Assembly (NCBI RefSeq): GCF_011045215.1
Contig: NZ_CP049201.1
Length of the DNA: 64,000 nucleotides
Direction: 5' to 3' (one strand)
From: Escherichia coli
Lineage (GTDB): Bacteria; Pseudomonadota; Gammaproteobacteria; Enterobacterales; Enterobacteriaceae
The notes under the pieces were generated by a model. That model was not told the origin of the DNA. It saw only the letters and a program-made list of their open reading frames with translations, and did no database searches. This document shows positions 9,157 through 44,356 of the stretch, piece by piece. Made by a program: the position numbers and the translations under genes. Numbering within the stretch: position 1 is the stretch's first letter; every line of letters begins with the position of its first letter.

Positions 9157-10815
<1,659 letters not shown>

Positions 10816-11195
10816 TGATGTGCCACATCCGGCATGGTATGCCGGATGTGGCGTATGCTGATAAGACGCGCCAGCGTCGCATCAGGCAACCGGCTTGGGT
10901 GTTAGATGTCGGATGCGGCATAACCGACTTATTCGACCTACGGGGTGGAGCACTTCACAGCGGTGTAGGCCTGATAAGACGCGTCAGCGTCGCATCAGGC
11001 AACCGGCTCGGACGTTGGATGTCGGATGCGGCGTAACCGCCTTATCCGACCTACGGGGTGGAGCACTTCACAGCGGTGTAGGCCTGATAACACGCGTCAG
11101 CGTCGCATCAGGCAACCGGCTCGGGCGTTAGATGTCGGATGCGGCGTGACCGCTTTATCCAACCTACGGGGTGCCGCACTTCACGGCAGTTTAGC
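10816..11195. repeat. REP/BIME cluster, about three tandem ~116-bp units
   Basis: Repeated GCCGGATGCGGCG…CTTATCCGACCTACGGGG…CTGATAAGACGCG…CATCAGGCA palindromic units; the overlapping small ORFs in the track are repeat artefacts. Confidence 0.9.
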
Positions 11196-11679
11196 GAACT
11201 ACCGCGTTGTCAATTTTCTCTTCCGCCTTCCAGACGCGGTACTTCACATCTACATTGTCTGGCGTATACACCACGATCGGCAGCTTGCTGTTGTAACGCA
11301 GCATTCCAGTATCGCCCAGATACGCGGTGACAAATTTCTTCTCTTTCTTGCCATCCGGGCAGGCCATCATCGTGGAAACCGGCGAGCTAACTTTATCAAA
11401 GACATAATAATCATAGCCCCAGCCTTCCAGCGTTTTGCTTTCCAGCTTCCCGCCGAGACGATGCAAATTGCAATCGCCTTCCAGCGTCTGACCGATTAAC
11501 AGTTCTACTTTCAGGGTAGATTCATCTTCTTGCGGGGTTAACTGAATCACCTGACGCTTCATGCCTTTTTCAGCTTGTGGATAAGGCGCGATTTTTTCCA
11601 GTGGCTGGACGCTCTCTGCCGCCCAGGCGGAAGTGGTGGCGAAAGCGGCAAACAATACTGCAGGTAGAATGGTCTTCAT
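11191..11679 (-). CDS. eco: ecotin (periplasmic serine protease inhibitor)
   Basis: 162-aa [46 protein letters not shown]… matches ecotin. Confidence 0.95.
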
Positions 11680-11863
11680 TTTTTGCTTTCCTTCTTCATT
11701 TATAGGTTTGCACCGATGATGTCGCTGAAGGTTAACATATTCATCAGATTTATTAATTTGCTTTATGAATAACTTAAAGAATATTCAGACAATTTTACCT
11801 GCTCTTTTAGTGTTAAATTCTGATGAGAGAGCAAACCAGCAGAAATATCTCTGGTGAATTAAT

Positions 11864-11887
11864 CGCTATATAAATATATTTATAACC
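11864..11887 (+). promoter_or_regulatory. putative ModE operator in the napF control region
   Basis: CGCTATATAaatatatTTATAACC resembles the ModE inverted-repeat operator. Confidence 0.45.
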
Positions 11888-11937
11888 ATTTGAAATGTGA
11901 GCAAAAGCCCGTTTTTGCCACGCTTCCCGCCACTCTT

Positions 11938-11972
11938 TTGATCCTGCTACAGGTTTTACCTCGATCGGGGTA
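11938..11972 (+). promoter_or_regulatory. napF promoter: putative Fnr half-site region and NarP/NarL 7-2-7 site
   Basis: TACCTCG-AT-CGGGGTA palindromic heptamer pair at 11957-11972; TTGAT-containing Fnr-like site centred about 20 bp upstream. Confidence 0.5.
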
Positions 11973-12085
11973 TGCATCTTTGACACATCCTTTAATATCT
12001 TAGCGGCTATAAAAATGGCTTATTAATTATGCGGTTTATTTGGTCGCTCTCAATTTTCAGAGCGCGTTAATGATGGAAGGTCAAT

Positions 12086-12580
12086 GTGAAGATTGATGCA
12101 TCCCGTCGGGGCATACTCACTGGTCGCTGGCGCAAAGCCAGTAACGGTATCCGTCCGCCCTGGTCCGGTGATGAATCTCATTTTCTGACCCATTGCACCC
12201 GCTGCGACGCCTGTATTAATGCTTGTGAAAACAACATTCTGCAACGCGGCGCGGGCGGCTATCCGAGCGTTAATTTCAAAAATAACGAGTGCAGCTTCTG
12301 TTACGCCTGCGCGCAGGCTTGCCCCGAATCGCTATTTTCTCCGCGCCACACCAGGGCCTGGGATTTGCAGTTCACCATTGGGGACGCGTGCCTGGCGTAT
12401 CAGTCAGTTGAATGCCGCCGCTGTCAGGATAGCTGTGAGCCAATGGCAATTATCTTTCGCCCGACGCTCTCCGGGATCTACCAGCCGCAACTTAATAGCC
12501 AACTTTGCAACGGATGTGGAGCATGTGCAGCCAGCTGTCCGGTATCAGCCATAACTGCGGAGTATCTCCATGCACACTAA
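12086..12580 (+). CDS. napF: ferredoxin-type protein NapF
   Basis: 164-aa ORF (GTG start) with multiple CxxCxxCxxxCP iron-sulfur motifs; first gene of the nap operon. Confidence 0.9.
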   Translation: MKIDASRRGILTGRWRKASNGIRPPWSGDESHFLTHCTRCDACINACENNILQRGAGGYPSVNFKNNECSFCYACAQACPESLFSPRHTRAWDLQFTIGDACLAYQSVECRRCQDSCEPMAIIFRPTLSGIYQPQLNSQLCNGCGACAASCPVSAITAEYLHAH

Positions 12581-12833
12581 CTGGCAAGTTTGCAGCCTGG
12601 TCGTGCAGGCCAAAAGCGAACGAATTTCAGACATCAGCACCCAACTGAACGCCTTTCCCGGCTGTGAAGTTGCTGTCAGCGACGCGCCGAGCGGTCAGTT
12701 GATTGTGGTGGTGGAAGCAGAAGACAGCGAAACGCTGATCCAAACCATTGAGTCAGTACGCAACGTAGAGGGCGTGCTGGCGGTGTCGCTGGTTTATCAC
12801 CAGCAGGAAGAGCAAGGTGAGGAAACACCATGA
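12570..12833 (+). CDS. napD: NapA chaperone NapD
   Basis: 87-aa ORF overlapping napF and napA; conserved operon position. Confidence 0.9.
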
Positions 12834-15316
12834 AACTCAGTCGTCGTAGCTTTATGAAAGCTAACGCCGTTGCGGCCGCTGCGGCGGCTGCCGGTCTCAG
12901 CGTGCCGGGCGTTGCCCGCGCCGTTGTTGGTCAGCAGGAAGCCATTAAATGGGATAAAGCGCCGTGCCGTTTCTGCGGTACTGGTTGCGGCGTTCTGGTC
13001 GGAACGCAGCAGGGGCGTGTGGTGGCCTGTCAGGGCGACCCGGACGCACCGGTTAACCGTGGCCTGAACTGCATTAAGGGCTATTTCCTGCCCAAGATCA
13101 TGTACGGTAAAGACCGTTTGACGCAGCCGCTGCTGCGTATGAAAAACGGTAAATATGACAAAGAAGGCGAATTTACCCCAATCACCTGGGATCAAGCCTT
13201 TGATGTGATGGAAGAGAAATTCAAAACCGCCCTGAAAGAAAAAGGGCCGGAATCGATCGGTATGTTCGGTTCTGGTCAGTGGACTATCTGGGAAGGTTAT
13301 GCCGCGTCCAAGCTGTTTAAAGCGGGCTTCCGTTCGAACAACATCGACCCGAACGCGCGTCACTGTATGGCGTCGGCAGTAGTTGGCTTTATGCGTACCT
13401 TTGGTATGGATGAGCCGATGGGCTGCTATGACGACATCGAGCAGGCTGACGCGTTTGTGCTGTGGGGCGCAAACATGGCGGAGATGCACCCGATCCTCTG
13501 GTCACGCATCACTAACCGTCGTCTCTCTAACCAGGACGTCACCGTGGCGGTGCTTTCAACCTACCAGCATCGTAGCTTCGAGCTGGCGGATAACGGCATC
13601 ATCTTTACGCCGCAATCTGACCTGGTGATCCTGAACTACATCGCCAACTATATCATTCAAAACAATGCGATAAATCAGGACTTCTTTAGCAAACACGTTA
13701 ACCTGCGCAAAGGGGCGACGGACATCGGCTACGGTTTACGTCCGACCCATCCGCTGGAAAAAGCAGCGAAGAATCCGGGTTCTGACGCCTCCGAACCGAT
13801 GAGCTTTGAAGATTACAAAGCCTTCGTTGCCGAGTATACGCTGGAAAAAACCGCCGAAATGACTGGCGTACCAAAAGATCAGCTGGAACAACTGGCGCAG
13901 CTGTATGCCGATCCGAACAAGAAAGTCATCTCCTACTGGACGATGGGCTTCAACCAGCATACTCGTGGCGTGTGGGCCAACAACCTGGTCTACAACCTGC
14001 ACCTGCTGACCGGCAAAATTTCCCAGCCGGGTTGCGGTCCGTTCTCCCTGACCGGGCAGCCTTCCGCGTGTGGTACTGCGCGTGAAGTGGGCACCTTTGC
14101 TCACCGTCTGCCTGCGGACATGGTGGTGACTAACGAGAAACATCGTGATATCTGCGAGAAGAAGTGGAATATCCCGAGCGGCACCATTCCGGCGAAAATC
14201 GGTCTGCATGCGGTAGCACAAGACCGTGCGCTGAAAGACGGCAAGCTGAATGTTTACTGGACCATGTGTACCAACAACATGCAGGCCGGGCCGAACATTA
14301 ATGAAGAGCGTATGCCGGGCTGGCGCGATCCGCGCAACTTCATCATCGTCTCCGATCCGTATCCGACAGTCAGTGCGCTGGCCGCCGACTTGATCCTGCC
14401 GACCGCAATGTGGGTAGAAAAAGAGGGCGCTTACGGTAACGCCGAACGCCGTACTCAGTTCTGGCGTCAGCAGGTACAGGCACCGGGCGAAGCGAAATCG
14501 GATCTCTGGCAGTTAGTCCAGTTCTCCCGCCGCTTCAAAACTGAAGAAGTATGGCCGGAAGAGCTGCTGGCGAAGAAACCGGAACTGCGTGGCAAAACGC
14601 TGTACGAAGTTCTGTATGCCACCCCCGAAGTGAGCAAATTCCCGGTATCCGAACTGGCGGAAGATCAGCTGAACGATGAATCCCGCGAGCTGGGCTTCTA
14701 TCTGCAAAAAGGGCTGTTCGAAGAGTACGCATGGTTTGGTCGCGGTCACGGTCACGATCTGGCACCGTTCGATGACTACCACAAAGCGCGCGGTCTGCGC
14801 TGGCCGGTGGTGAACGGTAAAGAAACGCAGTGGCGTTACAGCGAAGGTAACGACCCGTACGTGAAAGCGGGCGAAGGCTATAAGTTCTACGGTAAACCGG
14901 ATGGTAAAGCGGTGATCTTCGCGCTGCCGTTCGAACCGGCGGCGGAAGCACCGGATGAAGAGTACGACCTGTGGCTCTCTACCGGACGCGTCCTGGAGCA
15001 CTGGCACACCGGCAGTATGACTCGCCGTGTGCCGGAACTGCACCGCGCCTTCCCGGAAGCGGTCTTGTTTATTCACCCGCTGGATGCGAAAGCGCGCGAT
15101 CTGCGCCGTGGCGACAAAGTGAAAGTGGTTTCTCGCCGTGGCGAAGTGATCTCGATTGTTGAAACGCGCGGTCGTAACCGTCCGCCACAGGGCCTGGTGT
15201 ACATGCCGTTCTTCGACGCCGCACAGCTGGTTAACAAACTGACGCTGGACGCGACCGATCCGCTCTCGAAAGAGACGGACTTCAAGAAGTGCGCGGTCAA
15301 ACTGGAGAAGGTGTAA
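12830..15316 (+). CDS. napA: periplasmic nitrate reductase catalytic subunit NapA
   Basis: 828-aa ORF with Tat signal (SRRSFMK), N-terminal Cys cluster (CRFCGTGCG) and molybdopterin oxidoreductase sequence. Confidence 0.97.
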
Positions 15317-42589: not shown

Positions 42590-42622
42590 ACAAAAAAGCA
42601 CTGCCTAAGCAGTGCTTTCAGT
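42590..42622 (-). terminator. intrinsic terminator downstream of mepS
   Basis: Minus strand: GAAAGCACTGCTTAGGCAGTGCTTTTTTG. Confidence 0.8.
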
Positions 42623-42664: not shown

Positions 42665-43231
42665 TTAGCTGCGGCTGAGAACCCGGCGTGCTTCGTTGTA
42701 ACGCTTCTTCCAGTACGGTTCATTCATGCTGGAAATAATAACACCACTGCTGGTGGAAGCATGGACAAACTGATTGTTGCCGATATAAATACCGACATGG
42801 CGTCCCGTTGAACCGGCACGGAACAGAACTAAATCACCCGTACGCAAATTACTGCGAGAAACAGATTTACCCATTTCCTGCTGTTCGTAAGTCGAACGCG
42901 GAAGTTCTAAGCCAAATTGCTCACGGAATGTACGTTGTACAAAACCAGAACAATCGATACCTTTTTTAGTGCTACCGCCCAGACGATAACGTACGCCTTT
43001 CCAGTCAGCATACTGATCCATAATTCGCGATTTTACGTCGACATTACGAACCAGGTTTTCAAATTCATCCTGAGAAGCTTGCAGTGATGATGTTTCACTA
43101 CCCACTGCACGTGTCTCAGGATGCATATTCTTTGCGGTGTTATTTGCACTACATGCAGAAAGCAGAACCGCTACTGCAATCGCGGGGATCCCGCGCAAGA
43201 TATATCTCAAAATCGGTTGAGATTTGACCAT
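42665..43231 (-). CDS. mepS: peptidoglycan DD-endopeptidase/LD-carboxypeptidase MepS (Spr), NlpC/P60 lipoprotein
   Basis: 188-aa ORF with lipobox (LLSAC) and NlpC/P60 catalytic Cys (…[10 protein letters not shown]…). Confidence 0.95.
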
Positions 43232-43642
43232 GTTGTTTGTTTTCCCTTGAAGTCCTTAACGACAAATATCGTTATAAAAAAATGCCAAGCGACACGAGAC
43301 TAATTACCTGGGCATGTTGAAACAATTCCTTAAGGCCAAATCTGTGGACTAACGCACAAAATTATATGCTGTGAGGATAATCTACCGCCGAGGCAAAACG
43401 AGTTCGAGATTACCCGATTGGTGCGGTCTTGGCGAGCGGTTTTACATGATTTTTTATAAGAAAAAGTGATACAGAAAGTTAATAAGCGGGATTGGTCAAT
43501 TAAAGTACGATTGAGTGAAATGCATGCAATCCATTCATTTACTTAGAGAATGATTTTTGCGTTCGATGGATGAAAGCACGGTGCGCATCATCAGGATTAT
43601 CCTCACTATAAAAATAAACCTGATGATGTTAATTACTGTGAG

Positions 43643-44356
43643 TTATTTGTTTTGGAAATGTTTGTTTTTTCCCGGTAGTGATTTGTCAAAAAAGGTGATT
43701 AATCGATCACTTAATGGCGTCAGCAACACCCAGGGCAAACCGATCAATATCACGGTCATCGAACCGACAATGATGTCAGTAAACCAGTGTGCGCCAATCA
43801 TTACTCTGGGAAACGCAAAAACCACAAAAATAATAAGGGCGATAAGACCTGCAACTTTGCCGAAATAACGCCACATGAATGCCGAAAAAATAAGCAGCAT
43901 CATGCCGTGATCGCCGGGAAAGCTATCTCGTGAGGCATCTTTCGTGGGGACAGAGAGCAGTTCGCTGACGCGGTTAATATCGGCAAAAGTCAATGTTGGG
44001 CTGGCCCGTTTTACAGGAATTAATGCCTGACCCAGCTGGTTTAATACCACTGCAGTTAATAGCATGACCAGACCAATAATCACGATACGTCGTCTGCCTG
44101 GGGCGTTTTCTTTCAGCCAGAAACTCAGCATCAACATACCCATCGCCAGCAGTGAACAACCGTCGAAGGCGCGATTGTTGGTCAATGCAACCAGCCACAA
44201 AAAGGCCTTACTTTCGACCAGTTTCTGATTAAAGAAATAAAAAATATCCGCATCAATCGGCAACCAGAATCCATGATTAACGGGAATATACCAGGAAAGA
44301 AACAGCGCGAGGCCGACAATATTCAACAACACTATTTGCGGCAAATTTTTAATCAT
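43643..44356 (-). CDS. lpxT: lipid A 1-diphosphate synthase LpxT (YeiU)
   Basis: 237 aa from the ATG at 44354-44356 (MIKNLPQIVLLNIVGLALF…); PAP2 membrane phosphatase family. Confidence 0.9.
   Translation of the reverse strand: MIKNLPQIVLLNIVGLALFLSWYIPVNHGFWLPIDADIFYFFNQKLVESKAFLWLVALTNNRAFDGCSLLAMGMLMLSFWLKENAPGRRRIVIIGLVMLLTAVVLNQLGQALIPVKRASPTLTFADINRVSELLSVPTKDASRDSFPGDHGMMLLIFSAFMWRYFGKVAGLIALIIFVVFAFPRVMIGAHWFTDIIVGSMTVILIGLPWVLLTPLSDRLITFFDKSLPGKNKHFQNK

Follow-up and report, generated by a model that had tools for sequence, protein, structure and literature searches.

A conserved inverted repeat between lpxT and mepS of Escherichia coli as the probable 3'-terminal stem-loop of the lpxT transcript

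What does a perfect inverted repeat do in the spacer that separates the end of lpxT from the start of mepS in Escherichia coli? The preliminary description of this locus had offered two answers, namely a protein-binding palindrome or an RNA stability element, of which the second is retained here and the first abandoned. The reading we favour, and hold to be probable, is that the repeat corresponds to a protective stem-loop devoid of U-tract at the 3' terminus of the lpxT transcript, for which we infer the involvement of Rho, a trimming by exonucleases and a stabilisation of the lpxT mRNA.

The window, that is the whole 64-kb stretch of DNA analysed, is the reverse complement of E. coli K-12 near 2.27 Mb, and its coordinates can be converted as K-12 = 2269568 + (43642 - window coordinate). 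On the minus strand, the gene order is yeiR, lpxT (43643-44356), a spacer of 411 bp, mepS (42665-43231) and pdeN, with the lpxT product being 99.6% identical to the K-12 LpxT. Regarding what is already known at this place, the control of lpxT by MicA works on translation and not at the 3' end, and a search of the literature on the lpxT intergenic region, its 3' UTR, sRNA/Hfq and bicyclomycin returned nothing relevant. Along the minus strand, the features considered are the following:

43643-44356, minus strand: lpxT coding sequence, 237 aa (ORF list; K-12 annotation b2174)
43643-43645, minus strand: lpxT stop codon TAA (ORF list)
43627-43633, minus strand: ATTAACA heptamer, located 5' of the hairpin and overlapping its first 2 nt (70-sequence intergenic alignment)
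43619-43628, minus strand: 5' arm of the hairpin, lpxT-sense RNA, CAUCAUCAGG
43597-43617, minus strand: inner part of the hairpin, 9 more pairs around a 3-nt loop (RNA fold)
43586-43595, minus strand: 3' arm of the hairpin, lpxT-sense RNA, CCUGAUGAUG
43583, minus strand: match to the MG1655 RNA 3' end NC_000913.3 2269627 (+) (Term-seq)
43436-43585, minus strand: C-rich, G-poor untranslated stretch past the hairpin, candidate Rho loading region (composition)
43400, minus strand: known distal mepS start P2, at -169 from the ATG and 185 nt downstream of the hairpin (Mendoza-Vargas 2009)

Sequence, copy number and fold of the repeat

As read from the window, the arm CATCATCAGG at 43586-43595 has its exact reverse complement CCTGATGATG at 43619-43628. 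These are the arms of the perfect 10-bp repeat previously described, the right one having been placed correctly and the left one a single nucleotide too far to the left (43585-43594); the spacer between them, said to be AT-rich and 24 nt long, is indeed AT-rich (4 G+C of 23, i.e. 83% A+T) but counts 23 nt. The distances to the neighbouring genes hold as well, since, on the minus strand, the repeat (K-12 2269582-2269624) starts 14 nt past the lpxT TAA and its end is 355 nt away from the mepS ATG, as does the absence of U-tract on the lpxT strand, where the 3' flank of the repeat reads CGCACCGTGC. When one mismatch is allowed, the arms grow to 15 nt, and the mismatch position differs between E. 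coli strains, with a T in the window, a G in K-12 (forming a G.U pair in the RNA) and a C in the strain 20A24; in the E. coli strains read, it is the only position to vary and the arms are unchanged.

Perfect inverted repeats of at least 10 bp with a spacer of 3-40 nt are expected 2.1 +/- 1.5 times per 64-kb window with the composition of the present one, and 14 were found; this class is enriched in the window and, by sequence alone, a single instance is insignificant. What makes the present one significant is the z-score of its fold (-6.5), its location directly past a stop codon and the maintenance of its pairing across genera. An expectation of about two perfect 10-bp inverted repeats per window is what speaks for a palindrome due to chance, or belonging to a REP/BIME-like family, without locus-specific role. 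Like the REP/BIME that stabilise mRNA at the 3' end, the lpxT-mepS repeat is an intergenic palindrome able to block 3' exonucleases; unlike them, it carries no REP consensus and is specific to the lpxT-mepS spacer, where the 81-nt region is single-copy in 5425 of the 5426 complete E. coli genomes and always at this locus, the repeat itself giving one match in the window and one per locus in the other genera. The idea of a repeated-element family was rejected on account of this single copy and, as the pairing is kept with covariation and a mapped RNA 3' end stands at the base of the hairpin, an origin by chance or from such a family is extremely improbable. The inverted repeat is a real, conserved and ordinary feature.

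In E. coli 20A24 (NZ_CP147044.1; L083 2556-3330), an IS1A has entered the hairpin with the target duplication GGATAATC and parts the arms by ~780 bp, the only case among the complete E. coli genomes sampled; the hairpin is therefore dispensable, at least in that background.

In the lpxT-sense RNA, the repeat folds into a hairpin of 19 bp at -20.0 kcal/mol (z = -6.5), as good a fold being reached by none of 200 shuffles. It is made up of a 10-bp outer stem, a 9-bp inner helix and a 3-nt loop (43606-43608). The inner helix pairs 43609-43617 with 43597-43605, includes three G.U pairs and is formed on the lpxT-sense strand only; the antisense RNA folds less well (-14.2 kcal/mol, 14 bp) because the G.U pairs of the sense strand turn into A.C mismatches. 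In E. albertii, it is the antisense RNA that folds slightly better. The outer stem holds 5 G-C pairs, which is as G+C-rich as is required of the hairpin of an intrinsic terminator, and is followed by the tail CGCACCGUGC, with 1 U in 8 nt; the terminator scan did not call the repeat site. A permissive scan of 43100-43800 against Rfam 15 recovered no family, the best matches reaching 13-21 bits for gathering thresholds of 40-120 and being all rejected as eukaryotic snoRNA or miRNA noise.

Conservation of the pairing across Enterobacteriaceae

A MepS scan with one genome per species provided 80 Enterobacteriaceae loci, in 79 of which lpxT is upstream of mepS, with a spacer of 400-430 bp in 69. 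Hairpins of all lengths were taken in by the search of these orthologous loci, and 73 of the 80 have one of -11 kcal/mol or lower no further than 110 nt from the lpxT stop, the median offset being 15 nt. The core motif occurs at equal distance from mepS in four more loci (L038, L043, L056 and L069), whose hairpins were missed because the lpxT frame continues through them, as checked directly in L038. In this last locus, from a Leclercia MAG (2081-2134), the lpxT stop TAA reads TTA and the frame runs 17 more codons through the hairpin, to close at a TGA overlapping the end of the 3' arm; L043 seems similar in this read-on of lpxT.

The core ATCAGGGATCG-TTTT-CGATCCCTGAT is common to many genera. 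Citrobacter has CATCATCAGGGA...TCCCTGATGATG, with the same outer arms as E. coli; these are identical in E. coli, E. albertii and Citrobacter, which differ in the interior, larger and fast changing in Escherichia. Between the window and the other genera, the hairpin region is 58-72% identical and the spacer that follows 53-73%, against 75-95% for the mepS promoter and leader. From these alignments, it is the pairing that is conserved, rather than the primary sequence. The ATTAACA heptamer shows ~80% column conservation in 70 loci, even where the hairpin sequences differ; it may be what is left of a terminator A-tract, act as a -35-like element or be recognised by a protein or an RNase.

Directly 3' of the hairpin, a U-run is present in about 20 of the 80 loci, with Klebsiella, Kluyvera, Siccibacter, Atlantibacter, Cedecea, Dryocola and Trabulsiella among them, and the hairpin is there a canonical intrinsic terminator. 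An AGGGATC core is clearly common to several of these loci. The U-run is missing in Escherichia, Citrobacter, Salmonella arizonae, Kosakonia and most Enterobacter; no U-tract of 7-8 nt follows the stem in any Escherichia locus, the window and K-12 included. The E. coli hairpin is orthologous to the U-tract-bearing intrinsic terminators of other Enterobacteriaceae. Absence of conservation, together with a repeat that is just the end of the lpxT transcript, had been named beforehand as the outcome that would speak against any special role: a transcript end is essentially what is found, and the hairpin is conserved.

Covariation was counted on a loop-centred alignment of 53 homologous hairpins, used because the whole-spacer MAFFT alignment misplaced the right arm, the loops differing in length. 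Double changes were found in all 13 pairs of this alignment, paired cells amounted to 84% vs. 31-51% when the partners were slid by 1-3 columns, and none of 500 shuffles matched any of the observed covariation measures; besides, the core helix was predicted independently by RNAalifold. Over the 9 core pairs, G.U outnumbers A.C by 19 vs. 6 (p = 0.015, shared ancestry ignored), an excess that is gone when the ragged outer pairs are added (24 vs. 26) and that would lend weak support to the sense strand.

The same comparisons bear on the possibility that the repeat acts as DNA, a palindrome to which a dimeric transcription factor controlling mepS or lpxT would bind. The perfect symmetry of the arms, the core TCAGGGATCG..CGATCCCTGA common to many genera, the strong conservation of the rest of the intergenic region and the evidently complex regulation of mepS speak for such an operator. 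Yet the arms are spaced by anything from 3 to 23 nt in the orthologues and the half-sites change by compensatory pairs, the ~20 loci with a plain intrinsic terminator include Kluyvera, Siccibacter and Atlantibacter, where unrelated terminator hairpins occupy the same position, the inner helix forms in the sense RNA only, and the repeat, which comes past the end of lpxT, precedes the distal mepS start by 185 bp. A protein-binding palindrome, as had been suggested at first, is thus highly improbable.

The mapped RNA 3' end and the termination of the lpxT transcript

An RNA 3' end was mapped by Term-seq in MG1655 at 2269627 (+), with a score of 1323 and the class 'orphan', in the sheet for LB at OD 0.4 (Adams et al., 2021; PMC7815308, Supplementary file 1). 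Following the K-12 sequence base by base, the hairpin closes with a paired G and 2269627 comes three nucleotides later, and the alignment of the window with K-12 places its counterpart at 43583. The class 'orphan' results from its distance of 60 nt to the lpxT stop, over the limit of 50 nt set for 'primary' ends (PMC7815308). The peak is weak; in the same Term-seq data, it is present in one of the three conditions and absent from the OD 2.0 and M63 sheets. In the supplements of SMRT-Cappable-seq, no entry for lpxT or mepS was found. The stable hairpin in the lpxT-sense RNA, the Term-seq end 3 nt past the stem and the compensatory changes across Enterobacteriaceae together support the RNA stability element of the preliminary description.

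Elsewhere in the window, mepS has its own intrinsic terminator, the inverted repeat AAAGCACTGC / GCAGTGCTTT with its T-run (42595-42618). Its agreement with the Term-seq end at K-12 2270620 provides the mapping of coordinates with an internal positive control, the 3' end standing inside the U-run, 7-9 nt in (PMC7815308 table).

Could the hairpin itself be a weak intrinsic terminator in E. coli, releasing the transcript directly and perhaps with help from NusA/NusG? In common with canonical intrinsic terminators, the lpxT hairpin is located 14 nt past the stop, is strong (-20 kcal/mol), adjoins an RNA 3' end and has U-tract orthologues in other genera, canonical terminators being found in ~20 other loci; moreover, none of the bicyclomycin-defined Rho termination regions is called between 2268000 and 2270099 (PMC7815308, Supplementary file 2), for which the low expression of lpxT could account if this assumption is made. 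Intrinsic termination in E. coli depends, however, on the U-tract (PMC6061677), which the E. coli hairpin does not have, with 1 U in the 8 nt past the stem and no call in the terminator scan. Besides, the distance from the stem to the 3' end is of 3 nt, against 7-9 nt into the U-run for the mepS terminator. Such a direct release at the hairpin is, in our estimation, unlikely.

Stem-loops that protect Rho-terminated ends were reportedly first proposed by Peters et al. in 2012. In E. coli, precise 3' ends were then described directly past stable stem-loops without U-tract and with more C than G downstream, such ends being made by the trimming activity of PNPase/RNase II after Rho termination (Dar & Sorek 2018; PMC6061677). 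As in this class, the lpxT stem-loop is stable, directly past the coding region, without U-rich tail or clear upstream A-tract, and belongs to a weakly expressed gene, with the 3' end immediately past the stem and C exceeding G downstream: over the first 100 nt past the hairpin, C is found 27 times and G 14 times, the G content drops to 6-9% further on and the C/G ratio is of 1.9-2.1 over 100-150 nt. It departs from this class in that Rho dependence and trimming are only inferred for lpxT, which has no Rho region in PMC7815308, and in its unusually long stem (19 bp, with a G.U-rich inner helix) as well as its A+U-rich and Escherichia-specific interior. It was further predicted that, with the hairpin kept and the U content changing, a gene can switch between an intrinsic and a Rho-dependent end (PMC6061677), and the pattern of the lpxT hairpin across genera is the one predicted.

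With the repeat as a protective stem-loop, the course of events would be as follows. The repeat would encode the 3'-terminal stem-loop of the lpxT transcript, probably yeiR-lpxT, RNA polymerase transcribing it 14 nt past the lpxT stop and the RNA folding over ~19 bp. The polymerase would probably not be released efficiently at the hairpin because the U-tract is missing, and transcription would most likely run on into the 185 nt, untranslated, rich in C and poor in G, that precede the mepS promoters. There, either Rho would end transcription, a C/G ratio of ~2 over the next 150 nt being suited to Rho loading ahead of these promoters, or the read-through RNA would be cut later. The 3'-to-5' exonucleases PNPase and RNase II would then shorten the tail as far as the hairpin, leaving a stable lpxT mRNA with its end 3 nt past the stem.

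The mepS side of the spacer and the significance of the hairpin

Two promoters have been described for mepS, both much closer to the gene than the repeat (PMC10798246). The only spr start tabulated elsewhere is at -169, with the -10 GGTAATCT (Mendoza-Vargas 2009 supplement); this distal mepS start is at ~43400 and the hairpin precedes it by 185 nt, so that none of the mapped mepS promoters includes the repeat. Two 'terminator-like' matches at 43399-43417 were discarded, as they coincide with the start region of mepS P2 and not with the repeat.

The hairpin also contains a promoter-like TTAACA-16 bp-TATAGT on the lpxT/mepS strand, which would start, near K-12 2269612, a third and very long mepS leader or a small RNA. 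Its hexamers agree with the consensus at 10 of 12 positions, the -35-like TTAACA is part of the ATTAACA conserved across genera, and a CATAAT occupies the -10 position in Escherichia sp. MOD1. Against this hidden promoter, one such match in 600 bp is at the level of chance (1.9 expected), the -10, located in the interior that is peculiar to Escherichia, has decayed in E. albertii and in the divergent E. coli SCPM-O-B-8794, and neither the sole spr start at -169 nor the two promoters of PMC10798246, both nearer to mepS, correspond to it. We give it very little credence.

Several observations were made in passing on the mepS side. The length of the lpxT-mepS spacer is held at ~411-426 bp, and its promoter-proximal two thirds (43232-43478, minus strand; spacer positions ~165-411) are 75-95% identical from Escherichia to Enterobacter, with near-invariant blocks in the spacer of 70 Enterobacteriaceae, e.g. 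CTTTCTGTATCACTTTTTCTTATAAAAAATCATG upstream of the P2 -35. Such a conservation far exceeds the need of two core promoters and, from the alignment, suggests sites for unmapped regulators or a structure of the mepS leader RNA. A Term-seq 3' end occurs 4-6 nt before the mepS start codon (43235-43237; K-12 2269973/2269975, +) in all three conditions and is scored non-Rho-dependent; it adjoins the reported OxyS pairing site and the Shine-Dalgarno region and might stem from an intermediate of decay or one linked to an sRNA. A second perfect 10-bp inverted repeat, CATCCTGAGA / TCTCAGGATG with a 38-nt spacer, is present in the mepS coding region (43066-43123), together with a strong 'internal' Term-seq end (score ~10,000-13,000) at 43074 (K-12 2270136, +), which stands at the start of the 3' arm of this repeat and not past it.

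Hairpin and ATTAACA could be imagined as an active element, either a tunable insulator against yeiR-lpxT read-through into the mepS promoters or a 3'-UTR site for a ProQ-like RNA chaperone, which we consider very unlikely. If the insulator were true, lipid A phosphorylation and undecaprenyl-phosphate recycling would be linked to the expression of a peptidoglycan hydrolase, and under an active element the repeated gain and loss of the U-tract among genera would amount to selection on the level of read-through. With the repeat as a protective 3' stem-loop, the 'orphan' Term-seq 3' end is assigned to lpxT and an lpxT 3' UTR of ~60 nt is defined. Beyond annotation, this is of little importance, the structure being of an ordinary and well-described kind at transcript ends and not a new regulatory site. 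Across Enterobacteriaceae, the same hairpin with and without U-tract nonetheless illustrates in nature the switch that evolution is proposed to make between intrinsic and Rho-dependent ends, and the loci assembled here could be used as a test set for it.
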